Assembly (NCBI GenBank): GCA_964651805.1
Contig: CAZYXX010000002.1
Span: 281,516-345,515 of the forward strand
Direction: 5' to 3'
DNA: 64,000 nucleotides
Source of the DNA: an uncultured Hyphomicrobium sp.
GTDB lineage: Bacteria > Pseudomonadota > Alphaproteobacteria > Rhizobiales > Hyphomicrobiaceae
This document shows, piece after piece, positions 30,478-48,237 of the stretch. How positions within the stretch are numbered: position 1 is the first letter of the stretch; the number at the start of each line of letters is the position of its first letter. The notes under the pieces are model-generated. The model worked only from the letters and a program-made list of their open reading frames with translations. It made no database searches and was not told where the DNA came from. A program made the translations under genes and the position numbers.

Positions 30478-31635
30478 TCACTGGCGCTTGTAGCGATGGG
30501 GGACAAAAGGCAGCGATACGACGCTGACAGGCAGTCGATTGCCGCGAACTTCCGCGAATACAATCGTTCCGGGAGCCGTACGGGCTGCTGGCAGGTAGCC
30601 GACGGCGATGGGTGCATTTACGCTCGGGCCGAAGCCACCGGACGTGACTGCGCCGATCGGCTCGGTCGTAGTTTCATCGGCGAATAAAGGCGTTTCGGCA
30701 CGCACGGGTGTTCGCGTTTGGGGTGCCAATCCGACAAGGCGGCGTGCTGTACCGCGCGCGAACTGCTGATCGATGGCGCTTGCGCCAGGATAGCCGCCGG
30801 CTCGGACGCCTCCGACACGACGCGATTTTGCGATCGCCCAACCGAGCGAGGCTTCGAGGGGGGTCGTCGTAGGATCGATGTCGGCGCCGTGAAGGGGCAG
30901 ACCGGCTTCGAGACGCAGTGAATCTCTTGCGCCAAGTCCAATCGGTTGCACGACGGGATTTTTCAGAAGTTCGGTTGCGATTTCTTCTGCGCTCTCTATG
31001 GGGAGAGATATTTCGAAGCCGTCCTCACCGGTATATCCGGATCGTGAGACGATGCAGGAAGCGCCCAGGATTGCACAGTCACGCACATCCATGAATCGCA
31101 TCGCCGCCGTTTTTGGGGCGAGAGTGCCGAGTACGAGGCCAGCTTCCGGTCCCTGTAGCGCAATCAGGGCACGGTTCAACTTCTCGATTTCGCAATGCTC
31201 CGCCAGTGCTGCTCGGAGGTGCGCTTCGTCCGCGTCCTTGCATGCGGCGTTGACAATGAGCAGTAGATGATCGTCGCGGGCTGCGATCATCAAATCGTCA
31301 AGGATGCCGCCCGCGTCTTCGGTGAACAATCCGTAGCGCTGGCGGCCGCATGCCAGCGAAAGAATGTCGGCCGGGACCAGGCTCTCGAGCGCAGTGGCCG
31401 CATCAGCGAGTCGGCCGGATTTGGCGCGTAGCGCAATTTGGCCCATGTGGGATACGTCGAAAAGGCCGGCGGAGGCGCGGGTGTGCAGGTGCTCCTTCAG
31501 TACGCCCAGCGGATACTGCACCGGCATTTCGTATCCGGCGAATGGCACCATGCGGGCGCCGAGCCGGATATGAAGCGCGTGAAGCGGCGTTTTCTGGAGG
31601 TTGATCGGCGACGAAGTGTTTGCTGCTTCAGACAT
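30478..31635 (-). CDS. gcvT: Glycine cleavage aminomethyltransferase
   Basis: [43 protein letters not shown]. Confidence 0.97.
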
Positions 31636-31676
31636 GCGAAAGCTCCCTTCGGACGCAAAACGCGCCGTGGTGAGCC

Positions 31677-31871
31677 CCCTCTGTCGCGTAACCTGAAAGA
31701 TTATGTGCAGTAGCGGCGCCAATTGCCGTTACGAGCACGTTACCTCGTCGGTGGGCCAAAGAGACGCGGCCGCTTTCCAGAGTGTAGTTTGTCGTGCGGT
31801 CCTTCGAGCCTGAGAGTTTCCGGGGCGGTTGCTCCTTCGGCGCCGGGCAAGCCCGGTCTCTTCCGCGCGAC
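31677..31871 (-). ncRNA. Tandem glycine riboswitch
   Basis: Minus strand: GGAAGAGAC...CCGAAGGAGCAA...CUCUCAGGC (aptamer 1), then CUCUGGAAAG...CCGACGAGGUAA...CUUUCAGGU...GACAGAG (aptamer 2); directly upstream of gcvT. Confidence 0.92.
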
Positions 31872-31969
31872 AATCGTGACGTGCGCGAAAATGGGCGGTC
31901 GCGCGCCATCGGTCAACTCTACTTAGGTGGCCGTGCTTTCAGGCCGCAGACCTCGACGAAAAACGAGCG

Positions 31970-34368: not shown

Positions 34369-34455
34369 TTACAATAGGCGCTGCCTTATAAACAAGTAGG
34401 CGGTTGCGGCGAGCGGAAGCAGGTTTAGCGCCAGTATGAAAAGCCGAAACAACAT
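34369..34455 (-). CDS. Putative 28-aa single-TM peptide (MLFRLFILALNLLPLAATAYLFIRQRLL)
   Basis: Hydrophobic helix with basic tail about 20 nt downstream of an exact EcfG promoter; no clear SD. Confidence 0.4.
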   Translation of the reverse strand: MLFRLFILALNLLPLAATAYLFIRQRLL

Positions 34456-34481: not shown

Positions 34482-34506
34482 AACGCCGGTATCTAGCGGC
34501 GGTTCC
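34482..34506 (-). promoter_or_regulatory. EcfG (sigmaT/RpoE2) promoter
   Basis: Minus strand GGAAC-N16-CGTT. Confidence 0.7.
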
Positions 34507-34601
34507 TGTCTGCCGATCTGGCGGCGTTGCGAGTGCCAATCTAAAGAAACAGCTCTGGGGCCGCCGGAGCTGACTTCTGAACAAGCGTGGGCGCGAGATT
34601 T

Positions 34602-34736
34602 TCAGTTGTTCTGGTTTGCGTGAGAAACGTCGCTAGCACCGAGTTTCATCGGATAATCATTGTAGGCCGGCGTTTCTCGGCGGCAACCTGTGACAAAGAT
34701 TGCCGTGATAACGATCGCGATAGGAATAATCTTCAT
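34602..34736 (-). CDS. Small lipoprotein, 44 aa (not in ORF track)
   Basis: Hand translation MKIIPIAIVITAIFVTGCRRETPAYNDYPMKLGASDVSHANQNN; AAGGAG RBS; VTG-C lipobox. Confidence 0.75.
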   Translation of the reverse strand: MKIIPIAIVITAIFVTGCRRETPAYNDYPMKLGASDVSHANQNN

Positions 34737-35119
34737 GTTCCGCTCCTTTGTTGCCCCAGAATGGAACACAGATCGTGTCGTGTCTCGCGTGTTTGGCGTG
34801 TCTCGCCGTGTCCAGGACGCTTCACGAACTTTGATCGCGACGGCATGACGAGATCCGCCATACCAGTGAAATCAAATTCACGACGCCAAGTGCTGTCGCG
34901 CCATTTGCTGAAACGGAAATCGGACGCGAAGGTGCGATATTCGCTCAAGCGGCGCTGTTGCCGGTGTTCAAACGGCATGAGGTTGTGTCTCCCTTAGTGA
35001 AGCTCGAAAGGCCCAACGCGGCAGGCAGCTTCATGTTCCGTCTCTCTCATCGAGCTAAGGGACGGGCTGAACCCAATGTTCAGCCTGTCGAGAGGACGAG
35101 CTTTTGTTGTGCTCGGCAC

Positions 35120-35144
35120 GGAACCGTGACTGCACATGTGAGTT
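35120..35144 (+). promoter_or_regulatory. Near-consensus EcfG promoter
   Basis: GGAAC-N16-AGTT (one mismatch; GTT core retained). Confidence 0.5.
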
Positions 35145-35150
35145 CAATCG

Positions 35151-35294
35151 GAACAGCCCACGCGCTCAAGTTCGCGTGAGGCGTGATCGAGATGAGCTGA
35201 TCCATCCCCCTGGGGACCGGCTTATTTCGGATAAAACTGCCCGGACAACGCTCCCCTCCCCCTCCCGCACTGTTGTCCGGGCAGTTATTTTTTT
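35151..35294 (+). ncRNA. Candidate EcfG-dependent sRNA with C-rich loop
   Basis: Lies between an EcfG-like promoter and a 15-bp stem plus T7 terminator; loop contains TCCCCTCCCCCTCCC; no convincing plus-strand ORF; 5' end is estimated. Confidence 0.55.
35235..35294 (+). terminator. Intrinsic terminator (possibly bidirectional)
   Basis: AACTGCCCGGACAAC (35235-35249) / GTTGTCCGGGCAGTT (35272-35286) followed by ATTTTTTT. Confidence 0.85.
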
Positions 35295-35319
35295 GGACGT
35301 TAGGTGTGGTTTGGGAGCG

Positions 35320-36891
35320 TTAGGCAATGCGGGATTTGTCGATTCGGATTGAGGCCTTCAATCCGTCTTGTGCCCAGTCGTATTCAACATTGGAGCCGAG
35401 TTGGGCGGCACAAAGGGAGCCGATCAGTTTCGATCCGAAGCCCATGTTCTCGGGAGCAGCGGCTATTGCAGGACCGTTGCGCTCGTTCCACTCGAAAAGC
35501 ACTTCAGCTTCGGTCACGGTCAATCGCATATCAACGGAGCCGTCCGGCGTCGAAAGCGCGCCGTATTTTACGGCATTGGTAGCAAGTTCATGGACGGTAA
35601 GCGCTAGTGCAGTGCCCGCCAGTGAGCGGATCGTCAATTCGTCGCCACGGACTGTTATGCTGTTGTCACCGGTCAGCGATTTGTATGGCTCGACCAGAAC
35701 GCGCAACAGTTCCAGCATCGAAATGCGGTCGTCGCCCTGGTACATCAAATCGAATTGCCGGGCATCCACGAAGTCGTATACCCGCGACAGGGCCGTGAAT
35801 CGGCTGCGCAGCTCTTCGGCGTAATCCTTGATTTGCGAGGCCCGGCCGCGCGAACTCAATGAAATGAGGCTCGCGACCACCGCGAAGATATTCTTTATGC
35901 GGTGCTTGAGTTCCTTGGAGATGACATCACGCTGCTCTTCCGACACCTTGAGAGTATGAATATCCGTTGATGTTCCGAACCAGCGCTCGATTTCGCCATT
36001 TGCGCCACGAAGGGGTAATCCGCGCGCGAGCATCCATCTGAAGGAACCGGTGCGATCCTTGAGCCGATATTCTGTTTCGTAGCGTTCGCCGGTTTTCAAA
36101 GCCTTCGTCCAGGCGGCGGTCGTGTGCGCGATATCACTTGGGTGGAGAAGCTCAAGCCATTTGTCGTCCTTGCTTGAGGCCCAATCTGCTCCCGTGAATT
36201 CGTACCAGCGGTGATTGAAGAAGTCGGCCTCGCCGTCTGGAAGCGTGGACCAGACTTTCTGCGGGATCACGTTCAACACATCTCGCCAGCGCTTCTCCTT
36301 ACGCCGTGATTCGATCATAAAGTTCGCGACGGCGGCAAATTCCAGCAGTGTGCGTATGTCCGCATCCGTCCATTGCCGAGGAACCGCGTCGATGGCGCAT
36401 AAAGCGCCGAGCACATTTCCGTTTGATGAGGAGATTGGAACGCCTAGATAGGCGCGAACAGACAAGTCGCTTATTGCGAGATTGTTTGCCAGAAAATCAA
36501 TCTTCGTCGAATCGTTGACGATAAAGGGCTCGTTCGTGCCGACGACATACTGGCAAAATGAATGCGAGAGCGGTGTGCCTCGACTGGATGCCCAAGGCTC
36601 ATCTAGGCCGCAGGCGCTTTTGAAAAACTGCTTGTCCTCGGCCACAAGTGAAATCAGCGCGACGGGCGTCTTCAGGGTGCGGCAGACGAGCCGCGTTATG
36701 CTGTCGAACTCCGGCTCTGAGGGGGAGCCGAGTAGCTCGGTCGACGCAAGCGCGGCCAAACGCTCTGCATCCTGCAATTCACGCGTCGGATCCTGATGGA
36801 TCGAGTTCTCTTGTTGTTTCAGTTCAGGCCTCGCCCTGGAAGGTCCATCGCTCGTCGGCTCTCGCCCGGCAATTGAAACCATCCTCACCAC
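35320..36891 (-). CDS. GAF-PAS HWE-family histidine kinase
   Basis: GAF (RAYLGVPI..LGALCAID), PAS (FFNHRWYEFTG), ELKHRIKN, HELATNAVKYGAL, FEWNE. Confidence 0.93.
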   Translation of the reverse strand: MVRMVSIAGREPTSDGPSRARPELKQQENSIHQDPTRELQDAERLAALASTELLGSPSEPEFDSITRLVCRTLKTPVALISLVAEDKQFFKSACGLDEPWASSRGTPLSHSFCQYVVGTNEPFIVNDSTKIDFLANNLAISDLSVRAYLGVPISSSNGNVLGALCAIDAVPRQWTDADIRTLLEFAAVANFMIESRRKEKRWRDVLNVIPQKVWSTLPDGEADFFNHRWYEFTGADWASSKDDKWLELLHPSDIAHTTAAWTKALKTGERYETEYRLKDRTGSFRWMLARGLPLRGANGEIERWFGTSTDIHTLKVSEEQRDVISKELKHRIKNIFAVVASLISLSSRGRASQIKDYAEELRSRFTALSRVYDFVDARQFDLMYQGDDRISMLELLRVLVEPYKSLTGDNSITVRGDELTIRSLAGTALALTVHELATNAVKYGALSTPDGSVDMRLTVTEAEVLFEWNERNGPAIAAAPENMGFGSKLIGSLCAAQLGSNVEYDWAQDGLKASIRIDKSRIA

Positions 36892-37096
36892 CTAGCTCTC
36901 TTGTTTCCGTCCTAGCGGAAATTCGCTTTTGCCATCTAGGAGCTGTTTTTGGCTCCCGCAACCCAATTATTCTCACTAAGCGAGCTGAAAGAATTGAAGG
37001 AGTTGTGCGCTCAGGTATGTCAAAGTTGATAGACTGGAGATATTGTTCCGCGCCCTGCGTGTCGACCGATTTTCGGGTAACACTGCAGCAGGCCGT

Positions 37097-38920
37097 TTAT
37101 GCCGCAGCCGCGTCTGTGCCGGGTTTGGGCGTGGTGCTCGTGTCCGAGATGCGGGACGCGACCAGAGCGGCGCGTGCTTGAATGTCATCGAAGCGCGATG
37201 CGGTTGCGATCTGGCTTCGATCCTCAATGTCATTAGGGGCAATTCCTCGCTCTCCGAGCGTGCGTGTCATAATGGTTGCGGCCGGAAAGATGGCCTTAGC
37301 TCTGCGGCTCAGCAATGATGCTTGTTTCACGTCAAGGAGCCCGACATTGACGATGATGACCGTATCGGGTTCGGTGTTGCGCTGATCTGACTTGAAGGTC
37401 GAAAGCGCCGTTATTCCGCTCGTCGTTCCAGCGGCGACAGCCAGGCCAGGTCGTTCCCGGTTGATGCACATCGCGATGGCTTTGGCGGCGACAATGTCAA
37501 TCGGGCCGCGAGCCGGAACCACGAGGATAGGAGGTTCGGACTCGTGATCTTCCGCGCGCGTTTCCTGGACGTTGCCGTCGAGTAATTCGAGGACGTCGAG
37601 CAGGGTATCGTCCAGTGCTTCGAGCGTCGCTGCGTCAAGCCGGCCTAATTTGTGGTCGACCGCGGCCATTTTCAGCGCTGGCAACACGATCTCGTCGATG
37701 GCCACGTTGTTCGATTTGGTGTCTTCGATCGCTTCCAATTGGTTCAAGGCAGAGATCACGTCGTTCGAAAGCAGTCGATGGTAAAATTCTTGGGGCGGGG
37801 TCAATGCCTGCTCGTCGCTAAGCAGAACGGTAAGGAAATTTAAGCTCGGAACGTAACGGCCGGCGACGCTGAATATCATCGTGATCGGGGCCGAAAGCAG
37901 AAGACCGAGCGGCCCCCAGACCAGCGTCCAGAAGCTGGCTGATAGGATCATTGCGAATGGCGACAGGCCGACGCGCTTGCCAAGTAACAGCGGCTCGATC
38001 ACGTGACCCATCATTGGCTCACCCAACAAGAAGAGTGCAACGGTCGCTATTGTCATGCTCCAACCGGGATCGACGGCGAGCGACAGCAGCACGGGTGGAA
38101 TTGCCGCGAGGAACGATCCGATAAACGGGATAAATCGCATTAGAAACGCGAACGCGCCCCAGAGCGCGGGATTGGGAATGCCTATCAGCCAGAGAGCGAT
38201 CGCCACAAACGTGCCGAAGCCGGCGTTGAGGAGAACGAGTGCGGTAAACAGGTTCGACAGCCGGCTGCCGGCGTCGGACATGGCTGATGTCGACGCACTT
38301 ATGTTGTCGGTTCCCGCGACGCGCACGATCCGGTCACGGATATCGCGATACTGGAAAAGCAGGAATAGCGTGAAAAGAAACGTCAGGCCGATCTGAGCGA
38401 CGGACGCTACCGCATGCTCCAGGATAGTGAAGGGTGATGCGCTGGTGTTGTTCGAGATGACAATCTTGCTGTCGGCGTTGTCATTTTGGCCAGAACTCTC
38501 GGCTGGGCGGCTAGACTTCAACTCTTGCTCGACAAGCCTTTGATAGCTTTCGATTGCGTCGATGGCGCGCTGCAGCGCGCCGCCGGACACGACTTGGCTC
38601 GACACGTCTTTCAGCTTGGTGGCGACGTTCGACTGGTATTGCGGGAGGCTTGCCGTAAGGCCGAGAAGCTGTGTGCTCATGGCGTAGGACGCCACGCCGA
38701 CCAAGCCGGTTGTCGTGCCGAGGACCAGCAGTATCGCGACGGTCTGTGGAATGCGGCGGCGCATCAGTGCGTCGACGACCGGCGACAGGATGAAGCAGAG
38801 AATGGCCGCAAGTGTGAGCGGGATAAGTATATCCTGGCCGAACACGAGCGCGGCTACCACGATCGCCGCAGTTATCAGCGACGACGTCAGGCTTCCAAGC
38901 GAAGCCGCGAACAGGGGCAT
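37097..38920 (-). CDS. AI-2E (PerM/UPF0118) family transporter with C-terminal cytoplasmic extension
   Basis: GQDILIPLTLA, GIPNPALWG..RFIPFIG, IEPLLLGKRVGLSP; GGAAGGAG RBS before ATG 38920. Confidence 0.9.
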   Translation of the reverse strand: MPLFAASLGSLTSSLITAAIVVAALVFGQDILIPLTLAAILCFILSPVVDALMRRRIPQTVAILLVLGTTTGLVGVASYAMSTQLLGLTASLPQYQSNVATKLKDVSSQVVSGGALQRAIDAIESYQRLVEQELKSSRPAESSGQNDNADSKIVISNNTSASPFTILEHAVASVAQIGLTFLFTLFLLFQYRDIRDRIVRVAGTDNISASTSAMSDAGSRLSNLFTALVLLNAGFGTFVAIALWLIGIPNPALWGAFAFLMRFIPFIGSFLAAIPPVLLSLAVDPGWSMTIATVALFLLGEPMMGHVIEPLLLGKRVGLSPFAMILSASFWTLVWGPLGLLLSAPITMIFSVAGRYVPSLNFLTVLLSDEQALTPPQEFYHRLLSNDVISALNQLEAIEDTKSNNVAIDEIVLPALKMAAVDHKLGRLDAATLEALDDTLLDVLELLDGNVQETRAEDHESEPPILVVPARGPIDIVAAKAIAMCINRERPGLAVAAGTTSGITALSTFKSDQRNTEPDTVIIVNVGLLDVKQASLLSRRAKAIFPAATIMTRTLGERGIAPNDIEDRSQIATASRFDDIQARAALVASRISDTSTTPKPGTDAAAA

Positions 38921-38957
38921 GCCGGCTGACTCCTTCCCACACTCCAGCGAATGAGCA

Positions 38958-38982
38958 AACGGTTGTCGGCGTGACTTGTTCC
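38958..38982 (-). promoter_or_regulatory. EcfG promoter for the AI-2E transporter
   Basis: Minus strand GGAAC-N16-CGTT. Confidence 0.75.
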
Positions 38983-39025
38983 TCGGCCGCATAAATTCGA
39001 TTGAACGATTTCGTAGTGCGAAACG

Positions 39026-39051
39026 GGAACCGGAGTGTTTTCGGGGTCGTT
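39026..39051 (+). promoter_or_regulatory. EcfG promoter for ORF 39067
   Basis: GGAAC-N17-CGTT. Confidence 0.78.
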
Positions 39052-39066
39052 GCGGGATGAGGTGCG

Positions 39067-39432
39067 ATGAGCCTGCGCATTCAATGCTTTGGCGCGTTGG
39101 GAGCGCGTGGGCGTCAAAACGAGGATGTCGTGAACAAGAAGCTTCCGTCGCGCTCGGACTCCTGCCAAAGCGCCCGTGCTTTGCTGGCAGCGCGAGATGA
39201 AATCAGGAAACTCAAGACCAAGGTGCGCCGAAGTGTCAGCGAGCGCGGTGCGCGCGGAAAGTCCGCTATAGGGCAATCGATCGAGGCGCGAGAGATTCAG
39301 CAGAAAATCGCACGTCTGGAAGCAAAGCTCTCTCGCGTTGAAATGATGGAAGCCGGCGCGAAGAAGAGTAATCGCTGGCGTCGGCTGAGGCATGAATTCG
39401 AGGCGGTCCGCAGAGCGGTCGATGCCAAGTGA
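39067..39432 (+). CDS. Hypothetical basic coiled-coil protein
   Basis: GAGGT RBS and an EcfG promoter 15 nt upstream; K/R-rich helical composition. Confidence 0.6.
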   Translation: MSLRIQCFGALGARGRQNEDVVNKKLPSRSDSCQSARALLAARDEIRKLKTKVRRSVSERGARGKSAIGQSIEAREIQQKIARLEAKLSRVEMMEAGAKKSNRWRRLRHEFEAVRRAVDAK

Positions 39433-39475
39433 TGATCCGCCTCCCGTTGAAATCCTGCCCGTTCGAACAAGAGGT

Positions 39476-40222
39476 TTAAATGAGCGGACGGAGTACGGGA
39501 CCTACGCCTTCATAGCCGGATATCTGTGCCAGTTTGGCCTCGTCGATAATTTCAAGCGTCGAGCTTTGCCATTTCACAAGGCGTTGCGATACGAGCTTAT
39601 TGAGCGTCTTGTTCGTGTGCACGAGAGACAGGCCGAGTGCATCGGCCAAGTGCTGCTGCGTAATGGGCAGCTTGAGTTTTGCGCCAGTGACGAGGCCTAC
39701 ATGCCGGGCTCGAGTGAAAATGTCGAGCAAAACGCAGCCCATTTTTTCGATCGCCGTTCGTCGTCCGATTGTCAGGAGTTGTTCGTCCAGTAGCCGTTCA
39801 CTGCGTGATGCGAGCCAAGTCAAATCATAAGCCAGTGCCGGATGCTTCGCGTACAAATCCCATAGTTTGTCGCGTGGGAACACGCAAAGGACCATCTGCG
39901 AAAGAGCTTCTACCGAATGTTGCATTTCATTGAAGGTGGAATTCTGAAGGCCGAGAAAATCGCCCGGAAATACGAAGTTCAGGATCTGCCGGCGGCCGTC
40001 CTCCAGTGTCTTATAGCGAAACGCCCAGCCCGACAGGACGGTGAAGAGATGAGGGTTTGATGTTCCTTCCATCAGGATCGTTGCGCCCGGGTCCGTCACA
40101 AATTCTCCGGACTTGAACTCCTCAACAAAGCTCAATTCACCGGGTGAGATGGCACGGAAGATCTCGAGCGCCTTAAGAGGACATTTGCGGCAGGGTGTTT
40201 GACGCGGCACGGCGGCGGGCAT
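39476..40222 (-). CDS. Crp/Fnr family transcriptional regulator
   Basis: PCRKCPL N-terminus; cNMP barrel DGRRQILNFVFPGDFLG; HTH QQHLADALGLSLVHTNKTL. Confidence 0.92.
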   Translation of the reverse strand: MPAAVPRQTPCRKCPLKALEIFRAISPGELSFVEEFKSGEFVTDPGATILMEGTSNPHLFTVLSGWAFRYKTLEDGRRQILNFVFPGDFLGLQNSTFNEMQHSVEALSQMVLCVFPRDKLWDLYAKHPALAYDLTWLASRSERLLDEQLLTIGRRTAIEKMGCVLLDIFTRARHVGLVTGAKLKLPITQQHLADALGLSLVHTNKTLNKLVSQRLVKWQSSTLEIIDEAKLAQISGYEGVGPVLRPLI

Positions 40223-40315
40223 GGCAGTCCTTCAGCAATTTCTGGCGTCTAATGCGCTCAGGTAAATTTGGTTCGGTCGTTCGCCGCGGGAGGGCGTCAA
40301 AACACCGATATCCTG

Positions 40316-40341
40316 GGAACCGATGGGTGAAAAGCGGCGTT
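40316..40341 (+). promoter_or_regulatory. EcfG promoter for the DUF1328 gene
   Basis: GGAAC-N17-CGTT. Confidence 0.8.
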
Positions 40342-40381
40342 GTGAAAGTTACAGGAGCTGCATAGGTATTCGGAGATCGAA

Positions 40382-40555
40382 ATGGGCAATCTGCTTCACT
40401 ATGCGATCGTCTTCTTGGTTGTGGCGCTCGTTGCTGCGTTTCTCGGATTTGGCAGCGTGGCGGGAACTGCGATGGAAGGTGCGCGCATTCTGTTCTGGGT
40501 CGCGATCGTTCTGTTTGTCGTATCGCTGATTGCTGGGCTTTTTCGAAGAGCGTAG
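40382..40555 (+). CDS. DUF1328/UPF0391 small membrane protein, 57 aa (not in ORF track)
   Basis: Hand translation [57 protein letters not shown]; GGAG RBS. Confidence 0.9.
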
Positions 40556-40664
40556 CCTTATCAAGGGGCAGAGGCGCGCGATCGCGTCGTTATGAATCGG
40601 CCGGGGCCTCGCGCACCGGCCGGTTTGTCGTTGCGAACGGTATCTTGCTAGAGGACCTGAGCCG

Positions 40665-42065
40665 ATGAAAAGGCGAACGCGGGCAAAGTCAGCGGCAAGG
40701 CTTCTCATGATCCTTGCGGCCTTGCTGGTGCCAACGCTGTCGCTGTTGCCGCTCGGCGGCCTGTACCTCTACGAAAATGGCTACCTTCTCATCTGGGCGG
40801 GTCTCGCGCTCGTTGTGATCATCATCGTGTATGCGTTCGAGCGGTGGATTTTTGTGTCGACTGCGGTCGTGCCCGAGGTCGAGCCAGATTCCAACACGGC
40901 TCAGTCGCGCAGCTACAATGCGCTTGAGGAAAAAGCTTGGACGGACGTTCGGTTGCTGGCACGGTCGACCGACATCGAAAAGCTTGGCGATATACAGTCC
41001 GTGCTCGACCTTGGCCAGAAGACGGTCGAGACCGTTGCCCGGCGGCTTCATCCCGCTTCTTCTGACGCAGTCTGGCGCTTCACGCTACCTGAAGCCCTTA
41101 CTATCACGTCGCGTGTCAGCGCGGAGCTGTCTGAATTCGTCAACCAAAACCTACCCTTTGGTGATCGGCTGACGGTTTCGCAATTCCTGCAGGTCTACAG
41201 GTGGCGTTATCTCGCCGACGTCGCGGAGCGCGCATACGACATCTGGCGCGTTCTGCGTTTGGTCAATCCTGCAACCGCCGTAACGAACGAGGCGCGGGAG
41301 CGGCTGTCGCGTGCGCTGCTGTCGTGGAGCCGCGAGAAGATTACAAGACGTCTTGTCGAGGAGTACGTCGAACGCGTCGGCGAGGCCGCGATCGACCTCT
41401 ATGGCGGGCGATTGCGGGTTTCGGATGAAATATCGACGGCATCTGCCGCACCCCCGATTGGTAGCGACGCGGTAGGTCAGGCGTATCACCTCAGGGTGCT
41501 GCTCGTCAGCCGCGACGATAGACTGCGTTCGTCCGTTCGCGCGTTGCTTCGCGTCGGTCTCGGCAGAGCTATCGAGGGTGGTAGCAACTATCTCTTCGAG
41601 CTGGAGGAAGCCGCAACCTTGGCTCCGGTCCGGGTGAGAGAATACGACATGCTCGTTTTCTTGACGCCGGCGGATGAGACGGGTTTGGCGGAAGCGACGC
41701 TTGGAGACGATGTTCTCAAGCTGCTGGAAGCGGACGACGAAGCCACGCTACCTCCCGTCGCGATCGTCGCGATTTATGCCTTTCCTGATACTGTGCGTTA
41801 CGCTGAGAGTGTTGGACGCGATACGGGCTCTGCCAGCGTGCCGGCATCGGTCGTCGACTTGTCGATTGGGACAGAGCTGGACATGGCGGCCATCATACCG
41901 CTGCTTGCGCGCATGCGGCAGCTTGCGCCGAGTGCGGCGCGTGTTCACGCCGTCAGAACAAGGGCCGCGATGCGGGGGCGGCCGTGGACCCACTCTATCG
42001 TCCAGGCCGGTCGCGCCGCCGGCTCGCTCATCGGTAAGGTTGGCCGCAGCATCATCACGAGGTGA
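40665..42065 (+). CDS. Two-TM hypothetical protein, resembles membrane-anchored GTPase family but with degenerate P-loop
   Basis: N-terminal TMs; helical domain AYDIWRVLRLVNP...VGEAAIDLYGGRL; then LRVLLVSRDDRLRSS where a Walker A would be expected. Confidence 0.55.
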   Translation: MKRRTRAKSAARLLMILAALLVPTLSLLPLGGLYLYENGYLLIWAGLALVVIIIVYAFERWIFVSTAVVPEVEPDSNTAQSRSYNALEEKAWTDVRLLARSTDIEKLGDIQSVLDLGQKTVETVARRLHPASSDAVWRFTLPEALTITSRVSAELSEFVNQNLPFGDRLTVSQFLQVYRWRYLADVAERAYDIWRVLRLVNPATAVTNEARERLSRALLSWSREKITRRLVEEYVERVGEAAIDLYGGRLRVSDEISTASAAPPIGSDAVGQAYHLRVLLVSRDDRLRSSVRALLRVGLGRAIEGGSNYLFELEEAATLAPVRVREYDMLVFLTPADETGLAEATLGDDVLKLLEADDEATLPPVAIVAIYAFPDTVRYAESVGRDTGSASVPASVVDLSIGTELDMAAIIPLLARMRQLAPSAARVHAVRTRAAMRGRPWTHSIVQAGRAAGSLIGKVGRSIITR

Positions 42066-42086
42066 CTCAGCTCAAGCGGAGCGGGC

Positions 42087-42112
42087 GGAACAAACGCGAG
42101 CGGTTCTGCGTT
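42087..42112 (+). promoter_or_regulatory. EcfG promoter for the 42160-43001 gene pair
   Basis: GGAAC-N17-CGTT. Confidence 0.8.
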
Positions 42113-42159
42113 TCCGCGGCGAAGGCAGAAAATTCGCGTCATTTTAAGGAGAGCAGGCC

Positions 42160-42444
42160 ATGAATCGTTCCGCCTCGTATCAAAAGGACATCGAAACGAA
42201 GGTCGTCAGGGGTGCGGAAGAGGCGCTGAGTACCGCTGGGCACTACGCGGAAAAAGCGATCGACGCGGCTCAGAGCACGGCGAAGTCGGTTGCAGATCAG
42301 GGCCGCGATGTGGGTGAGCGCGTCAACGAGGTCGCAGGAAACTTCAAGACCGCATTGGACAAGTCCGTCACGACCCAACCGTTGACTACGCTCGTCACTG
42401 CGGCCGCCGTTGGCTTCGTACTCGGTGCGTTGTGGAAGTCGTGA
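42160..42444 (+). CDS. ElaB/YqjD (DUF883)-like tail-anchored stress protein
   Basis: Helical body ending QPLTTLVTAAAVGFVLGALWK; AGGAG RBS. Confidence 0.8.
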   Translation: MNRSASYQKDIETKVVRGAEEALSTAGHYAEKAIDAAQSTAKSVADQGRDVGERVNEVAGNFKTALDKSVTTQPLTTLVTAAAVGFVLGALWKS

Positions 42445-42488
42445 CGCTCCACGATTCGCACTAGGCATTTTCAACGCCCGAGGGAGAG

Positions 42489-43001
42489 ATGGCGATGTTC
42501 GGCGCACTCGTGCGGCGCGCGCAGCACACAATCGACAATGCGATTGAAAACGCGGTTACCCGCGCGCTCGTCGCCATACCGTTCCTCGTTGCAGTAGGTT
42601 TTCTTACCGTCGCGGCCAGTATTCGATTGACCGCAATGTATGGAGCGGAGACAGCGTACCTCATCCTCGCGGGCGTCTACGCATTCCTCGGACTTTTTGG
42701 ACTTGCGATTACGAACGCACGGTCGGTGAACCCGAGCGAGCCACCGGCAGCTGAAGCTGTTGAAACCGAGTCGGAGGAGGCCGCAAGCGAGGAAGCTACG
42801 GCAGACAGTTTCTCAAGCGCGGATCGGGAACTTCTTGTCGCGGCACTTACCTCGGCAGCACCCATCGCGTTGCCGTCCGTGCTTCGCGTCCTATATCGCA
42901 ACCTGCCAGTCGTGCTGGCTTTGTTAGCAACCGCACTCTTGTATTTGGGTGGCGAAGACGCTGAGGGCAGTGGCGAAAGCGCGCCGGTTCCGGCTGAATA
43001 G
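42489..43001 (+). CDS. Membrane protein, YqjE/phage-holin-3_6-like
   Basis: Two TM helices, acidic linker, third hydrophobic segment; follows the DUF883-like gene as in yqjDE-type pairs. Confidence 0.55.
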   Translation: MAMFGALVRRAQHTIDNAIENAVTRALVAIPFLVAVGFLTVAASIRLTAMYGAETAYLILAGVYAFLGLFGLAITNARSVNPSEPPAAEAVETESEEAASEEATADSFSSADRELLVAALTSAAPIALPSVLRVLYRNLPVVLALLATALLYLGGEDAEGSGESAPVPAE

Positions 43002-43005
43002 CCCA

Positions 43006-43030
43006 GGAACCATAGCGGTGGCGGCACGTT
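43006..43030 (+). promoter_or_regulatory. EcfG promoter for nepR-ecfG
   Basis: GGAAC-N16-CGTT. Confidence 0.85.
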
Positions 43031-43120
43031 GGACAGTCGCTATTTCCGAGCTAGGTTGTTTCGATTTTGCGGCCGGGGAGAGCTCAAGGAATGGCTGACA
43101 GAGAAACCAAGAAACCGGAA

Positions 43121-43291
43121 ATGACCGACACAACGACTACGGGTTCGGAGGAACAGATTAGCCTTCCAGAGGAAGTCCAATCGAGGTTGGGCAAGGAGTT
43201 GCGCAACGTCTACGGCAAACTTCTCGCTGAACCTCTGCCCGATCGCTTTTCCGAGCTTCTGAAGAAGCTCGCGACCGACGAAAGCAAGTGA
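43121..43291 (+). CDS. nepR: Anti-sigma factor NepR (alternative start 43091)
   Basis: RLGKELRNVYGKLLAEPLPDRFSELLKKL; overlaps the start of ecfG. Confidence 0.9.
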   Translation: MTDTTTTGSEEQISLPEEVQSRLGKELRNVYGKLLAEPLPDRFSELLKKLATDESK

Positions 43292-43842
43292 TGGACGATC
43301 AGGCGAGTCAACAGTTTCAGGAAGATCTGGCGTCGTTCGTGCCGAACTTGCGCGCCTTCGGTCGCTCGCTTTGCGGCAACGCCGACCACGCCGACGACCT
43401 CGTGCAAGAGACTCTCGTCAAGGCATGGAAGAACCGCGACAGTTTTGCGCAGGGATCGAACCTGAAGGCGTGGCTGTTCACAATCCTGCGCAACTCGTTT
43501 CTTTCGGAGCGTAGGAAGCTGAAGAATGAGGTACGCGATCTCGATGGCGAGTACGCGGCGCGTTCAGCGGTCAGTCCAGCACAATCGGGCCACATGGACC
43601 TCATCGATTTCGAGAAGGCTCTTTCCGAGCTGCCCTCCGACCAGAAGGAGGCGCTGCTCCTAGTTGGCGCAGAAGGGTTTTCATACGAGGACGCGGCGCT
43701 CATGTGTGGTTGTGCGGTTGGAACGATCAAAAGCCGCGTTAACCGCGCGCGCAGCAAGCTTGCCGAGCGCCTCGGTATTGAGGGGGCAAGCGATTACGGA
43801 AACGATGCGCAAGCGCATTGGGCTCGTTCAGCCGTAAAGTAA
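43288..43842 (+). CDS. ecfG: ECF sigma factor EcfG (ECF15)
   Basis: NLRAFGRSLCGNADHADDLVQETLVKAW; NLKAWLFTILRN; CAVGTIKSRVNRAR. Confidence 0.93.
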   Translation: MMDDQASQQFQEDLASFVPNLRAFGRSLCGNADHADDLVQETLVKAWKNRDSFAQGSNLKAWLFTILRNSFLSERRKLKNEVRDLDGEYAARSAVSPAQSGHMDLIDFEKALSELPSDQKEALLLVGAEGFSYEDAALMCGCAVGTIKSRVNRARSKLAERLGIEGASDYGNDAQAHWARSAVK

Positions 43843-43881
43843 CTGTCTGTTCCTAAATAATAAATTTTTATGCTCTCGGAC

Positions 43882-43907
43882 GGAACCAGCGCGCCTTCAG
43901 CAGCGTT
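43882..43907 (+). promoter_or_regulatory. EcfG promoter for phyR
   Basis: GGAAC-N17-CGTT. Confidence 0.85.
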
Positions 43908-43946
43908 GTACAGAGGTTTCGCATGACCACGCACAGGGGATCTTGC

Positions 43947-44756
43947 ATGTCGCTTGCTGACTTGATCGGCCCAGAATTGCCGTTCCTGCGCCGCTTCGCC
44001 CGAGCCTTGGGTGGCTCTCAGGAACGCGGCGACGCTTACGTCGTTGCCACTCTAGAGACGCTCGTTGCGGATCCGAGAAGTTTCCGGAGCGATCTCAAGC
44101 CGCGTGTCGCGCTCTACAAATGCTTCCTTAGCATCTGGAACGCCATGCCGATCAACGCAGAAGTCGAGCCGGCCGGATCGGATATCATTTCGGCGGCCGA
44201 TCGGCGGATCGAATCGATCACGCCTTTGCCGCGCCAGGCGTTCCTGTTGGCGGCGGTGGAGGAGTTCTCACCCGCTGATATCGCCGTGCTGCTCGATCGC
44301 AGCGAGGATGAGGTTGCGGCGCTTATCGATGAAGCAGCGGCTGAAATCGCCGATCAGATCTCGGCTCGCGTGCTCATCATTGAGGATGAACCGCTGATCG
44401 CGCTCGATATCGAGAATATCGTTCGGGAGATTGGCCATGACGTGGTTGCGATCGCCGCTACACACAAAGAAGCGACCGCCGAGGCGGCGCGCACCAAACC
44501 CAATATCGTCCTTGCCGACATTCAGCTGGCCGACGGCAGCTCAGGCATCGATGCGGTCAACGAAATACTCCTGAATTTGAACGTGCCGGTTGTCTTCATC
44601 ACGGCCTATCCGGAGCGGTTGCTGACGGGCGAGAGACCGGAGCCCGCATTCCTAATGACCAAGCCGTTCCGTGCCGAAATGGTGAAGGCAGTTGTAAGCC
44701 AAGCTCTTTTCTTCGACGTAAAGGCGGGACCGGCGCGAACCGGGGCGGCGGCGTAA
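43947..44756 (+). CDS. phyR: Anti-anti-sigma response regulator PhyR
   Basis: Sigma-like domain LPFLRRFARALGGSQERGDAYV plus C-terminal receiver ADIQLADGSSG...FITAYPERLLTG. Confidence 0.95.
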   Translation: MSLADLIGPELPFLRRFARALGGSQERGDAYVVATLETLVADPRSFRSDLKPRVALYKCFLSIWNAMPINAEVEPAGSDIISAADRRIESITPLPRQAFLLAAVEEFSPADIAVLLDRSEDEVAALIDEAAAEIADQISARVLIIEDEPLIALDIENIVREIGHDVVAIAATHKEATAEAARTKPNIVLADIQLADGSSGIDAVNEILLNLNVPVVFITAYPERLLTGERPEPAFLMTKPFRAEMVKAVVSQALFFDVKAGPARTGAAA

Positions 44757-44761
44757 GCGTT
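44736..44761 (+). promoter_or_regulatory. Near-consensus EcfG promoter for the HWE kinase
   Basis: CGAAC-N17-CGTT (one mismatch). Confidence 0.5.
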
Positions 44762-44839
44762 ACCAAATTTGCCAACGTCGCCGGCAAAGAGCGACCAACG
44801 AAGATTGTCAGATGATCTAGCAGTGTCGAGAACAGGCCT

Positions 44840-46621
44840 ATGAGAGGCGCAAGCCCGTTTCTCGATTCCCCGGACGGAATGCTTTCACGGATGGCAGAGC
44901 AGCTGCTGACGGTCAGCGGCGACTGCGTGAAAGTCATTTCAGCAGATGGCCGCGTTCTTCACATCAATGAGGCGGGCCGGCGATTGCTCGAGGTCGAGAA
45001 CGGCGAGAGCGTCGTTGGTCAGGACTGGATCAGCACATGGCCCGAAAACGCCCAGCCCGATGTCAGGAAAGCGTTTGACGCGGCACTATCGGGTTTAGTT
45101 CACCGCTTCTCTGCTGCATGTCCGACGGCATCAGGGACGCTCAAATACTGGGATGTCGTCGCCAGCCCGTTGACGCGGGCCGATGGATGCATCGATGGAG
45201 CGCTCGTTGTCTCGCGTGACAACACGGCTTCTATTCTGCTTCAAAAGGTCTTGCTTGAGAGCGAGCAGCGTTTCCGTGCGCTCGCCGACAACATGGCCCA
45301 GCTTGCCTGGATTACCGACGGGGACGGCTGGGTCTACTGGTACAATCAACGCTGGTACGATTATACGGGGACGGCGCTGGACGAGATGAAGGGCTGGGGC
45401 TGGCAGAAGGTCCTTCACCCGGATTTCGTTGAGCGCGTATCTGTTAAGATCAAGGCGTGCTTTGCGAGCGGTGAACCCTGGGAAGATACGTTTCCACTGC
45501 GCGACAAGGATGGTCGTTACCGGTGGTTCCTGTCGCGCGCAAACCCTGTGCGGGATGGTGCGGGCAAGATCGTTCTTTGGTGCGGAACCAATACCGATAT
45601 TACGGAGCAGAGGGAGCTGAGCTTGCGCCTTCGGCAGCTGGCGCGGCTCGTGGAGCTTTCTCACGAAGCGATCATGGTTTCAGATACCAGTGGCGACGTG
45701 GTGTTGTGGAACAAGGGATGCGAAGACGTCTACGGGTACACACGCGCTGAAGCCATCGGCAAACGCCCGGATGAGCTTCTTCACACGCGCTATCCCGTGG
45801 ACCGGCAGCGCTTCCTGCAGGAAATTCTGGAAAGCCGGAGCTGGCGCGGCGAGATTGAGCAGGTCTCAAAATCAGGAACGGTATTGTGGATCGAGACCCG
45901 GCTTGAGGTGCTCGAGTTCGACGGGGCGACGTTCGTTCTGGAAACGAACCGCGATGCGACCGAACGGAAAGCGGCGGAGCGGTCGCAATCGATCCTCATC
46001 GGGGAGCTCAATCACCGGGTCAAAAACACGTTGGCGATCGTTCAATCGATCGTCACGCTAATGGCGAAGCGCACCACGGATGTCGGGCGTTTCGTTGCGG
46101 ATTTCCGGCGGCGCCTTCAGTCTCTGGCGTTTGCGCACGATCTGTTGACCGAAGCGCAGTGGAAAGGTGCCGAGCTGTCGGAGCTGGTCAAATTTGAAGC
46201 GGAGGCCAGGATCCTGGAGGCAGGCCGCTTTCGCGTACGCGGGGACCCTGTGTTCCTGCCGCCGCAGCTTGCGATCCACTTTGCGCTTATTGTTCATGAG
46301 CTAACGAATAATGCCGTCGAGCATGGTGCGCTTAGCGGAGGCTTGGGCGTCGTGAATGTGACCTGGGCGATCACTGGAAAGGACGAACTGACCGTCGAAT
46401 GGCGCGAGACAGGCGGCCCAAGGCCGGCTGGCGGTAGGCCGAGTGGATATGGAACGACGCTGATCGACCGCCTGGGCAGCCTGCCGCATTTGCGCACGCA
46501 GCTTTCGTTCAACGACGATGGCTTTGCCTGCATTATGAAAATCAGACTGCCAGCGGAGCAGAGCAGTAATCCCAGCGACTATTTCGATGTTACCAGCGGG
46601 CGCCGCGCGCGTCCGCTCTGA
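44840..46621 (+). CDS. Triple-PAS HWE-family histidine kinase
   Basis: Three PAS repeats; ELNHRVKN, HELTNNAVEHGAL, VEWRETGGP. Confidence 0.93.
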   Translation: MRGASPFLDSPDGMLSRMAEQLLTVSGDCVKVISADGRVLHINEAGRRLLEVENGESVVGQDWISTWPENAQPDVRKAFDAALSGLVHRFSAACPTASGTLKYWDVVASPLTRADGCIDGALVVSRDNTASILLQKVLLESEQRFRALADNMAQLAWITDGDGWVYWYNQRWYDYTGTALDEMKGWGWQKVLHPDFVERVSVKIKACFASGEPWEDTFPLRDKDGRYRWFLSRANPVRDGAGKIVLWCGTNTDITEQRELSLRLRQLARLVELSHEAIMVSDTSGDVVLWNKGCEDVYGYTRAEAIGKRPDELLHTRYPVDRQRFLQEILESRSWRGEIEQVSKSGTVLWIETRLEVLEFDGATFVLETNRDATERKAAERSQSILIGELNHRVKNTLAIVQSIVTLMAKRTTDVGRFVADFRRRLQSLAFAHDLLTEAQWKGAELSELVKFEAEARILEAGRFRVRGDPVFLPPQLAIHFALIVHELTNNAVEHGALSGGLGVVNVTWAITGKDELTVEWRETGGPRPAGGRPSGYGTTLIDRLGSLPHLRTQLSFNDDGFACIMKIRLPAEQSSNPSDYFDVTSGRRARPL

Positions 46622-46710
46622 GGCCGTAATCGACGGACCATGAAAATGCGCGGCGCCATCGTCCTCTGGGCCGCGCACACTAGTTTGTTGAAACGCGCGT
46701 TGTACCGTTT

Positions 46711-47205
46711 TTAAGCGCTCTTGGTGATCGTTTCTTTGGCGCGATTGAAGCCGTCGACGAGCTGCTGGACGATAGGCCCCACGGCCCGCTTAATTTCCGT
46801 ATCAGGAAGCGCCTTCGCGAGTGCGGAGAAGCGATCGTCGATGTTCATGCGGCGCAATTCAGATCGCACCGTGTCGCTGATGTCGTCGCTCACGCGAGAC
46901 AGTTCTCTTCGCCATTTGCGATCCGGCGTCCGGTTGCCGGTTCTTCGGTTGCTCAGCACTATAGCAACGAGCGCCGCGGAAGCGGCAATGCCGATCGCAA
47001 CGGGAATGGGGTTCGCTTTGATATACTTTTCGGCCGTAGCGTAAAGATCCTGCGCGCTGTCAGCGACAGCTTCCGCTTTCTCCGACGCTTTGTCTTTGAC
47101 GTTTGCAACGTCCTTCTTCAGCTTGTCGAACAAAGCTTCGAGCGACGCGAGGCGTTCATCGGACGTTGTCGATACTCCAAAGTCCTGAGATTTAATCGGT
47201 TGCAT
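46711..47205 (-). CDS. Hypothetical DUF883-like protein with central TM
   Basis: YIKANPIPVAIGIAASAALVAIVL; has its own EcfG promoter. Confidence 0.7.
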   Translation of the reverse strand: MQPIKSQDFGVSTTSDERLASLEALFDKLKKDVANVKDKASEKAEAVADSAQDLYATAEKYIKANPIPVAIGIAASAALVAIVLSNRRTGNRTPDRKWRRELSRVSDDISDTVRSELRRMNIDDRFSALAKALPDTEIKRAVGPIVQQLVDGFNRAKETITKSA

Positions 47206-47244
47206 AATCGTCCCTAGGTTGGTCTGGATAGAAAGCTAAGTTGC

Positions 47245-47270
47245 AACGCGCGACCGAGCACACGAGTTCC
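47245..47270 (-). promoter_or_regulatory. EcfG promoter for ORF 46711-47205
   Basis: Minus strand GGAAC-N17-CGTT. Confidence 0.8.
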
Positions 47271-47274
47271 GCGC

Positions 47275-47493
47275 CTATTCTTGCCTTTCGCGCAGATGCA
47301 ACGCGTGGGAATGGATGTCGGGATCTACGACCTCGATCACCTCTTGATCCTTCCCGTCGTCGTCCTGAAGGTTTTTGTCGACTTCGCGCAGTTTCTCGTG
47401 AGCGTCGATGATTTGCCATGGCAACGGCTTGATGAGCGCGCAGTCGAACAAGTGCCCGAGCTTTAAGCCGATCCGTTCCATCAAACGGTTCAT
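47275..47493 (-). CDS. Second, stand-alone NepR-like anti-sigma protein
   Basis: RIGLKLGHLFDCALIKPLPWQIIDAHEKL fits the NepR pattern IGxxLxx[YF]DxxxxxPxPxxxxxLLxxL; GGAGAG RBS; acidic tail. Confidence 0.65.
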   Translation of the reverse strand: MNRLMERIGLKLGHLFDCALIKPLPWQIIDAHEKLREVDKNLQDDDGKDQEVIEVVDPDIHSHALHLRERQE

Positions 47494-47531
47494 CGTGGCT
47501 CTCCGTAGTTTCGGAGCAAACTTTGCTTGTT

Positions 47532-47557
47532 AACGTGGCCGACGACCCCATTGTTCC
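47532..47557 (-). promoter_or_regulatory. EcfG promoter for the NepR-like gene
   Basis: Minus strand GGAAC-N17-CGTT. Confidence 0.8.
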
Positions 47558-47584
47558 GTAGTGCGCAACGACGCTCTGCGATGC

Positions 47585-47613
47585 AAAAAAGCCCGAAGCA
47601 TCGCTTCGGGCTT
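47585..47613 (-). terminator. Intrinsic terminator after csbD
   Basis: AAGCCCGAAGC-ATC-GCTTCGGGCTT with an A6 run on plus (U-tract on minus). Confidence 0.85.
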
Positions 47614-47646
47614 CACTAAAAATGCGATCGCGAGAACGTGGATTGG

Positions 47647-47844
47647 TTACATCGCATCCGTCCATCGATCGATTTCGGCCTTCGCCTTGTCCTTTGCGTA
47701 GCCGTAACGCTCCTGAAGAATACCTTCGAGCTGTTCGCGGCTACCGTTGACGCGGGCAATATCGTCGTCAGTCAGGTTGCCCCAGTTCTCTTTGACCTTG
47801 CCGGCGAACTGCTTCCAATTCCCTTCGATGCGATCCCAATTCAT
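47647..47844 (-). CDS. csbD: CsbD family stress protein
   Basis: MNWDRIEGNWKQFAGKVKENWGNLTDDD...LEGILQERYG. Confidence 0.95.
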   Translation of the reverse strand: MNWDRIEGNWKQFAGKVKENWGNLTDDDIARVNGSREQLEGILQERYGYAKDKAKAEIDRWTDAM

Positions 47845-47945
47845 CTTGAACCCTTTCTCTTCAATTTACCGGCGAGATGGCGCACGAGATGTGCGAAAGC
47901 GATACCGGTGAGCGTGATGCGTCCGTGGCGCCGCATGCCTAATAA

Positions 47946-47970
47946 AACGCGCGCGTAGAGTGGGGGTTCC
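47946..47970 (-). promoter_or_regulatory. EcfG promoter for csbD
   Basis: Minus strand GGAAC-N16-CGTT. Confidence 0.8.

Positions 47971-48160: not shown

Positions 48161-48237
<77 letters not shown>

Follow-up and report, generated by a model that had tools for sequence, protein, structure and literature searches.

A candidate EcfG-driven small RNA with C-rich loops in the general stress response island of an uncultured Hyphomicrobium

What does an EcfG-type promoter transcribe when no gene follows it? The question arises in a 64,000-nucleotide (nt) stretch of DNA from an uncultured Hyphomicrobium sp. (GenBank assembly GCA_964651805.1, contig CAZYXX010000002.1, positions 281,516 to 345,515), hereafter the window, which carries a general stress response island with nepR, ecfG and phyR. 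Among the EcfG-type promoters of this island, the one at 35120-35144 on the plus strand is alone in having no open reading frame (ORF) behind it. A preliminary description of positions 35120-35294 had proposed an EcfG-dependent small RNA (sRNA) resembling GsrN of Caulobacter. We argue here that the element is probably a stand-alone, EcfG-driven gene for a trans-acting sRNA of about 145 nt (35150-35294, plus strand), with C-rich loops as its seeds, and that its terminal hairpin is likely to be shared with a convergent histidine kinase gene.

Outside the window's own lineage, the element is known in only one other, represented by Hyphomicrobium sp. RBC081 and a contig from the Joint Genome Institute (JGI). 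We recovered an identical copy (L013), the RBC081 copy (L001, the same as L007 and L015), a JGI metagenome variant (L014) and a partial copy (L008), and computed conservation and covariation on the three distinct sequences from the two lineages (window, L001 and L014); stress loci at large were represented by 80 PhyR-centred loci amounting to 1.47 Mb. The promoter consists of an exact -35 box, GGAAC (35120-35124), a 16-nt spacer and the -10 box AGTT (35141-35144), a C-to-A variant of CGTT, and this reading of the sequence agrees with the preliminary description. Relative to the near-consensus sigma-EcfG/SigT site expected of a GsrN-type RNA (GGAAC-N16-17-CGTT), the spacing is right and a single -10 base is changed. 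Both hexamers are invariant in L001 and L014, and the 8 of 25 promoter positions that differ all fall within the spacer; the 80 nt that separate this promoter from a divergent one are essentially unalignable between the window and RBC081, with 16 of 72 columns identical. Across the 80 loci, GGAAC-N16-CGTT occurs 336 times and GGAAC-N16-AGTT 27 times, the latter compared with 2-13 occurrences at non-functional spacings (about fourfold enrichment), and an AGTT -10 box is also present in a GsrN-like RNA of another genus (L082). On the basis of its enrichment at the N16 spacing in stress loci, the AGTT variant of the EcfG -10 box appears to be used, but rarely, and the EcfG dependence of the promoter is likely but unproven.

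The usual spacing of extracytoplasmic function (ECF) promoters would place the 5′ end of the RNA at 35150-35155 (GGAACA), 6-8 nt past the -10 box, and the first eight bases of the predicted transcript, GGAACAGC, are unchanged in all three sequences. Three stem-loops (SL1 to SL3) are predicted on the plus strand. SL1 (35156-35182) is a hairpin of nine pairs around the loop CUCAAGUU, which is not C-rich; it extends the 5′ hairpin that had been noticed from its arms CACGCG/CGCGTG (35159-35164/35173-35178). SL2 (35187-35230) is a long, interrupted hairpin of 16 pairs with a C-rich apex, AUCCCCCUG, in which YCCCCUG is conserved. SL3 (35235-35286, 52 nt) is a perfect 15-bp stem (35235-35249/35272-35286) closing a 22-nt loop (35250-35271), the C-rich core of which, UCCCCUCCCCCUCCC (35252-35266), contains CCUCC twice; its stability on the plus strand is -28 kcal/mol (z = -6.3), and a U7 tract (T7 in the DNA, 35288-35294) would form the 3′ end of the plus-strand RNA. 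As a whole, the predicted 146-nt transcript folds at -64 kcal/mol, compared with -42.7 +/- 3.8 kcal/mol in dinucleotide shuffles (z = -5.6, 0 of 200 as good). The preliminary description had correctly placed the 15-bp stem, the 22-nt C-rich loop and the T7 tract, and had overlooked two features, namely SL2 with its own C-rich apical loop and a minus-strand U-run beside SL3. It was also right that these 145 nt or so hold no credible ORF: the sole AUG of the transcript opens Met-Ser-stop, no Shine-Dalgarno sequence is present, every longer frame is broken by inter-lineage indels of 3, 1, 1 and 1-2 nt, and the mechanical ORFs over the region (for example 35104-35352, plus strand, 82 aa) have no Pfam match.

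The two lineages differ in different ways across the three hairpins. In SL1 and SL2 together, 26 of 76 aligned positions differ (34%), yet 96% of cells are paired. Two pairs of SL1 have changed on both sides and one on one side, with pairing kept, and in SL2 one pair has changed on both sides and five on one side via G-U, for a total over the two hairpins of three double-sided changes and six single-sided ones through G-U. Because of these G-U pairs, the strand on which the structure is kept can be tested, and the SL1-SL2 fold of the three sequences reaches z = -3.4, -3.6 and -3.2 on the plus strand versus -1.2, -2.05 and -1.5 on the minus strand. The sequence of SL3 is free of substitutions in both stem and loop (0 of 50 aligned positions, against the 26 in 76 of SL1-SL2; Fisher p = 4e-7). 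Its sole variation is the length of the central C-run (35258-35262 in the window), which is C5 in the window, C6 in L014 and L008, and C7 in L001; slippage at the homopolymer, with tuning of the seed as its effect, could account for this, as could an error of assembly.

The narrow distribution of the element, in a lineage for which few sequences are available, emerges from several searches. In genome contigs, the SL3 stem pattern matched RBC081 alone and the SL3 loop pattern matched RBC081 plus 10 chance sequences; in metagenomes, the stem pattern returned 84 unrelated hairpins, none with the C-rich loop of SL3. A covariance model of the window RNA (R1), run over the 80 PhyR loci, found no true homologue and weak analogues only. 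Among protein comparisons, a search with the convergent kinase gave one cluster at 82% identity and then relatives at about 50%, which are not syntenic; exact-protein look-ups gave one identical copy (L013), one partial copy (L008) and one new variant (L014); and the PhyR of RBC081 is 95% identical to that of the window. In other Hyphomicrobium stress loci, with PhyR about 70% identical, the neighbouring AI-2E-family transporter is kept and the kinase and the RNA are both absent.

To which class of RNA might the element belong? In GsrN of Caulobacter crescentus, a sigma-T-dependent RNA of about 106 nt, six cytosines displayed by the 5′ hairpin bind G-rich stretches of mRNAs, among them the katG leader; Hfq stabilises the RNA, which undergoes endonucleolytic processing and has a separate terminator (PMC5869019). 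The candidate RNA shares with GsrN and GsrN-like RNAs an EcfG-type promoter, a non-coding transcript of about 100-150 nt (predicted here) and a position near nepR-ecfG-phyR, phyR being 8.6 kb away; it further shares with GsrN an exposed C-rich loop, the presumed seed for G-rich mRNA sites, as the best-conserved part of the RNA. It differs from GsrN, and from the GsrN-like candidates of other Rhizobiales, in layout. Theirs places the C-rich loop in the 5′ hairpin and ends with a separate canonical terminator, whereas SL1 of the window RNA has no C-rich loop and the C-rich loops lie in SL2 and in the terminal hairpin; the main one sits inside that terminal hairpin, a structure in common with the convergent HWE kinase gene. 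The -10 box AGTT is a further difference from GsrN. Of the GsrN-like, EcfG-dependent sRNA put forward in the preliminary description, the promoter, the position in the island and the C-rich loop are thus borne out, but the GsrN layout is not, the 5′ loop being CUCAAGUU. Nor is the effector undescribed as a kind, as had been suggested, given that Tien et al. predicted in 2018 that sRNAs under EcfG control, encoded near the stress locus and exposing a C-rich loop, are prevalent throughout the Alphaproteobacteria (PMC5869019).

Rfam scans of the whole window at the gathering threshold, and of 34900-35500 at E <= 10, identified no family for the element. This negative says little about its class, because GsrN-like candidates in six other stress loci also match no Rfam family; BLASTn matches to GsrN itself are limited to Caulobacteraceae (PMC5869019). 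Rfam likewise gave no GsrN-type match for the window RNA or for the Rhizobiales GsrN-like candidates, and no direct comparison with the Caulobacter GsrN sequence was made. The sub-threshold matches, to Scr3202, NiCo and AaHKsRNA41, are matches of shape. We rejected the first of these, Streptomyces Scr3202 (RF02833), which scores 26.6 bits against a gathering score of 52 (E = 0.11), as a likeness of shape only.

A second family named in the preliminary description, cuckoo/alpha-r14 (RF02344), comprises RNAs with two to four adjacent hairpins, each carrying CCUCCUCCC in its loop, and includes NfeR1 and the Rhodobacter CcsR/RSs0680 RNAs (PMC4615179). The window RNA resembles this family in its modular hairpins and its anti-Shine-Dalgarno-like C/U loop motif, with hairpin and loop sizes within the family range. 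It is unlike the family in that CCUCCUCCC is absent and a one-mismatch match, CCCCCUCCC, is found in the SL3 loop only; an exact CCTCCTCCC occurs nowhere in the window, and SL1 has no motif and SL2 just CCCCCU. Cuckoo/alpha-r14 RNAs are regulated differently and are not known to depend on EcfG. With the per-hairpin motif missing and no RF02344 match in 34900-35500 even at E <= 10, we rejected membership, and the suggested link to this family and the Rfam check proposed for it came out negative. Loops of this kind also occur far outside Alphaproteobacteria. In Staphylococcus aureus, RNAIII and RsaE/RoxS use C-rich hairpin loops to pair with G-rich or Shine-Dalgarno sequences, and RNAIII, with a C-rich loop in its very terminator hairpin, sets a precedent for seeds located within terminators. 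The 6C sRNA of Mycobacterium (PMC6486639) is a further regulator of this kind. All of these Gram-positive RNAs (6C, RNAIII and RsaE/RoxS) are unrelated to the window RNA in organism, sequence and regulation.

Further parallels, although unrelated to it in sequence, are found in at least 17 other stress loci. Hairpins that combine a perfect stem of 9 bp or more with a loop of 12 nt or more, at least 60% of it C, are rare in 1.5 Mb of stress loci: 11 distinct cases were found, and 8 of them have an EcfG promoter immediately upstream on the strand with the C-rich loop. In at least 13 Phyllobacteriaceae/Rhizobiaceae-like loci, a constant position is occupied by an EcfG promoter, with one or two large C-rich-loop hairpins and a conserved canonical terminator behind it. 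These RNAs lie on the minus strand at about 12.2-12.6 kb in the locus (L047, L049, L051, L054, L058, L059, L061, L063, L066, L069, L071, L082 and L084); their loops vary between genera, their terminator AAGCCGGCC...GGCCGGCUUU is highly conserved, and they belong to no Rfam family. When the 13 Phyllobacteriaceae GsrN-like RNAs were aligned, the terminator alone could be aligned, and no second covariance model was obtained.

Two further cases come nearer to the architecture of the window RNA. In Aestuariivirgaceae, an EcfG promoter directly after phyR precedes a predicted RNA of about 90 nt on the plus strand (L045 4678-4806, L042 10834-10960 and L044 10841-10965) with a short 5′ hairpin, a terminal 12-bp hairpin with a 26-nt C-rich loop, CCCCCCUCCCCCCUCUCCCC, and a poor U-tract; the next gene, encoding a DUF1328 protein, is co-directional, leaving no convergent gene to terminate. 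Three species have this RNA in identical form, and three further members of the family lack it. In a Hyphomicrobiaceae metagenome-assembled genome, an element on the minus strand (L037 10838-10945), convergent with phyR, carries the C-rich loops GUCCCCCCUCCCA and CUCCCCCCCGUG; its second hairpin lies directly after the phyR stop codon, its terminal C-rich loop is 12 nt long and its promoter-like site, GGAAC-N17-CATT, is non-canonical. Both resemble the window RNA in having a short 5′ hairpin, a terminal hairpin of 11-12 bp with a C-rich loop and, as in RBC081, a poor U-tract, and both are unlike it in their stem and loop sequences and in lacking SL2. Their loci are weak matches to the covariance model of the window RNA, at 13-16 bits, and the likeness may reflect either homology or convergence. 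Taken as predictions from sequence, these RNAs make EcfG-driven RNAs with C-rich loops a recurrent class in stress loci.

How would such an RNA act? We propose that RNA polymerase with EcfG transcribes the RNA of about 145 nt from GGAAC-N16-AGTT, and that it would fold into three hairpins exposing cytosines in the SL2 apex (CCCCCU) and in the 22-24-nt SL3 loop, CUCCCCUCCCCCUCCC. The SL3 loop, with its two anti-Shine-Dalgarno CCUCC cores, would above all be the likely seed, joined by the SL2 apex. With these loops the RNA would base-pair to target mRNAs, at their ribosome-binding sites or G-rich leaders, and the pairing would add a post-transcriptional layer to the general stress response, by analogy with GsrN in Caulobacter, the experimental precedent for a stress sRNA with a C-rich loop (PMC5869019). 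Within the window, pairing of the SL3 loop is stronger with translation-initiation regions than with gene interiors (mean -13.1 versus -10.4 kcal/mol, p = 0.001), a preference that is generic because any anti-Shine-Dalgarno-like sequence would show it. The initiation regions of nepR and of the AI-2E-family transporter reach -23 kcal/mol, which is within background, and only one partner in the window stands out, the antisense kinase terminator, at -56 kcal/mol versus -30 kcal/mol for the next best.

This partner brings in the second role that SL3 is likely to have. A GAF-PAS-HWE histidine kinase gene identified by Pfam scan (35320-36882, minus strand) converges on the hairpin, its stop codon 33 nt from SL3. 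Read on the minus strand, SL3 has a stability of -29.3 kcal/mol and is followed by the U-run UUUUAU (35231-35236, where the plus strand has AAAA before SL3), and the kinase orthologue at 82% identity has the same arrangement with SL3. In the window, the hairpin has U-runs on both sides, as a bidirectional intrinsic terminator does (U7 on the plus strand, UUUUAU on the minus strand); in RBC081, a good run, U6, is found on the kinase strand only, and the plus-strand U-tract is absent, the sequence there reading GUACAUUUGAG. Since the kinase-strand U-run is kept in both lineages and the plus-strand U7 is not, termination in the kinase direction would be the function conserved in both, and we consider it likely that SL3 is also the terminator of the convergent HWE kinase mRNA, with 35231-35236 as the likely termination point. 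The statement that no protein gene needs terminating here, on which the preliminary description had relied, has to be given up: a minus-strand U-run is present and is the better of the two in the sister lineage. In RBC081, the 3′ end of the RNA may result from U-poor termination or from trimming back to the hairpin. For the kinase gene itself, no EcfG promoter was found in 36883-37096.

Several of these observations weigh against the stand-alone sRNA that we favour. Its -10 box is AGTT and not the consensus CGTT, and GGAAC -35 boxes are common to other ECF sigma groups. The covariation is suggestive but, with three distinct sequences, not significant, as a score this high is reached by 32 of 500 shuffles. 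The sister lineage has the conserved kinase-strand U-run and lacks the plus-strand U-tract, and part of the conservation of SL3 could stem from its role as the kinase terminator. The in-window duplex scan names no specific trans target and returns only a trivial Shine-Dalgarno-like preference; for the pairing with G-rich ribosome-binding sites that the preliminary description proposed, and that we likewise infer, no site in the window stands out beyond the antisense 3′ end of the kinase mRNA. Transcription, EcfG dependence, both RNA ends, seed function and targets are, in sum, all things that we infer from the DNA. Against this stands a set of features that a plain terminator does not explain, namely a loop of 22-24 nt conserved base for base, a conserved promoter and a structured 5′ part.

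Among the alternatives, the one that survives best, although we regard it as unlikely, is that the RNA is real and acts mainly in cis, on the terminator hairpin of the kinase mRNA, altering the stability of that mRNA and feeding back on the stress kinase. It could do so through kissing of the C-rich loop with its G-rich complement followed by duplex extension, or through antisense read-through where the U-tract is missing. The exceptional energy of the antisense site fits this idea, SL3 being perfectly complementary to the kinase terminator hairpin, as do the invariance of SL3 on both strands, the absence of a plus-strand U-tract in RBC081, which makes read-through into the kinase gene plausible there, and the joint presence or joint absence of kinase and RNA in Hyphomicrobium loci. 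However, transcripts often overlap at a bidirectional terminator that they share, usually to no effect, the Aestuariivirgaceae analogues have a terminal hairpin with a C-rich loop and no convergent gene, and the second conserved C-rich apex, in SL2, has no antisense partner. A related but doubtful extension is reciprocal: with the seed of the stress-induced sRNA in the loop of a bidirectional terminator, each kinase mRNA would have the exact G-rich complement of that seed in the loop of its 3′ hairpin, kissing would titrate or destabilise both RNAs, and the C5, C6 and C7 variants would tune seed strength. If true, such a link would tie a signalling kinase to the post-transcriptional side of the general stress response by a built-in, mutual sponge or feedback.

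It is distinctly improbable that no independent RNA exists, with SL3 serving as the kinase terminator only and GGAAC-N16-AGTT being non-functional or too weak. The off-consensus -10 box fits this account, as does the distribution of U-runs, with the kinase-strand run in both lineages and the plus-strand U7 in that of the window only. It nevertheless leaves unaccounted for the -35 and -10 boxes, which are conserved 90 nt ahead of the hairpin on either side of a spacer that has diverged, as well as the kept pairing and plus-strand folding bias of SL1 and SL2, and it sits poorly with the 22-nt loop, which is unusually large for a terminator and invariant in its bases, terminator loops being normally short and unconstrained.

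We give still less credit to the idea that the minus strand is the functional one. On that view the active element would be the G-rich loop, GGGAGGGGGAGGGG, that the kinase mRNA carries at its 3′ end, for example as an RNA or sponge derived from the 3′ untranslated region that binds C-rich RNAs or the anti-Shine-Dalgarno sequence of 16S rRNA, or as a G-quadruplex with a stabilising effect on the 3′ end. The two strands give hairpins of equal stability, and the C7 variant of RBC081 would give four G3 runs, but this arrangement is absent in the C5 and C6 variants, and we rejected a minus-strand G-quadruplex as a conserved feature, possible as it is in the C7 variant only. It is also the C-rich strand that lies downstream of an EcfG promoter in 8 of the 11 such hairpins of other stress loci, and the Aestuariivirgaceae hairpin has no gene on its G-rich strand. 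That the transcript encodes a small protein, or is the leader of a downstream plus-strand gene, is hardly credible: mechanical ORFs do overlap it, but the small-ORF reading was rejected on the ground that frames are not conserved, the lone start codon and missing Shine-Dalgarno sequence speak against translation, and for the next 1.5 kb the plus strand runs antisense to the kinase gene.

The candidate sRNA gene is set among many EcfG-type promoters. The window has 14 matches to GGAAC-N16/17-NGTT where 3.1 would be expected, 13 of them lying within 34.4-48 kb, and together with nepR (43067-43291), ecfG (43288-43842), phyR (43923-44756) and a further HWE kinase gene (44840-46621) they make this a genuine EcfG/PhyR island, as had been stated. 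Typical EcfG targets in the island include CsbD, DUF883, DUF1328 and a YtxH-like protein; the 13 promoters span 13.5 kb (34482-47970) and precede the genes for these four, that for the AI-2E-family transporter, whose true start is near 38920, and a 72-aa ORF. The divergent promoter mentioned above (35015-35039, minus strand) is a consensus GGAAC-N16-CGTT with hexamers conserved in L001 and L014, and it drives an orphan ORF for a basic protein of 81 aa (34978-34733, minus strand), followed through an ATGA overlap by a 44-aa lipoprotein ORF (34736-34602, minus strand). Both ORFs are conserved in the RBC081 lineage, and the 81-aa protein has no homologue among the 5.8 billion proteins searched. 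Further along the minus strand, an EcfG promoter (34482-34506) precedes a 28-aa hydrophobic ORF, MLFRLFILALNLLPLAATAYLFIRQRLL, at about 34369-34455, which has a recognisable counterpart in L015 and is probably a stress-induced small membrane protein. Elsewhere in the window, a glycine riboswitch aptamer (31787-31875, minus strand) upstream of gcvT (30478-31722, minus strand) and a tRNA gene (48164-48237, minus strand) are the sole Rfam matches at the gathering threshold.

The finding opens no new kind of biology. The class of EcfG sRNAs with C-rich loops had already been predicted, and what is new here is that the predicted seed lies in the terminal hairpin, which a convergent kinase gene has in common with the RNA, an unusual layout that yields a simple, testable cis/trans hypothesis. 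Together with the Aestuariivirgaceae and Phyllobacteriaceae candidates, the window RNA points to a recurrent class whose members are mutually unalignable and of which none is in Rfam; sequence-based annotation therefore misses the class, and a signature of promoter and C-rich loop finds its members. A literature search on Hyphomicrobium and sRNAs returned nothing relevant, and no sRNA has been described in Hyphomicrobiaceae. If confirmed, the candidate would extend the GsrN concept to this family, in the form of an EcfG-driven sRNA that reshapes translation in stress via its C-rich loops.

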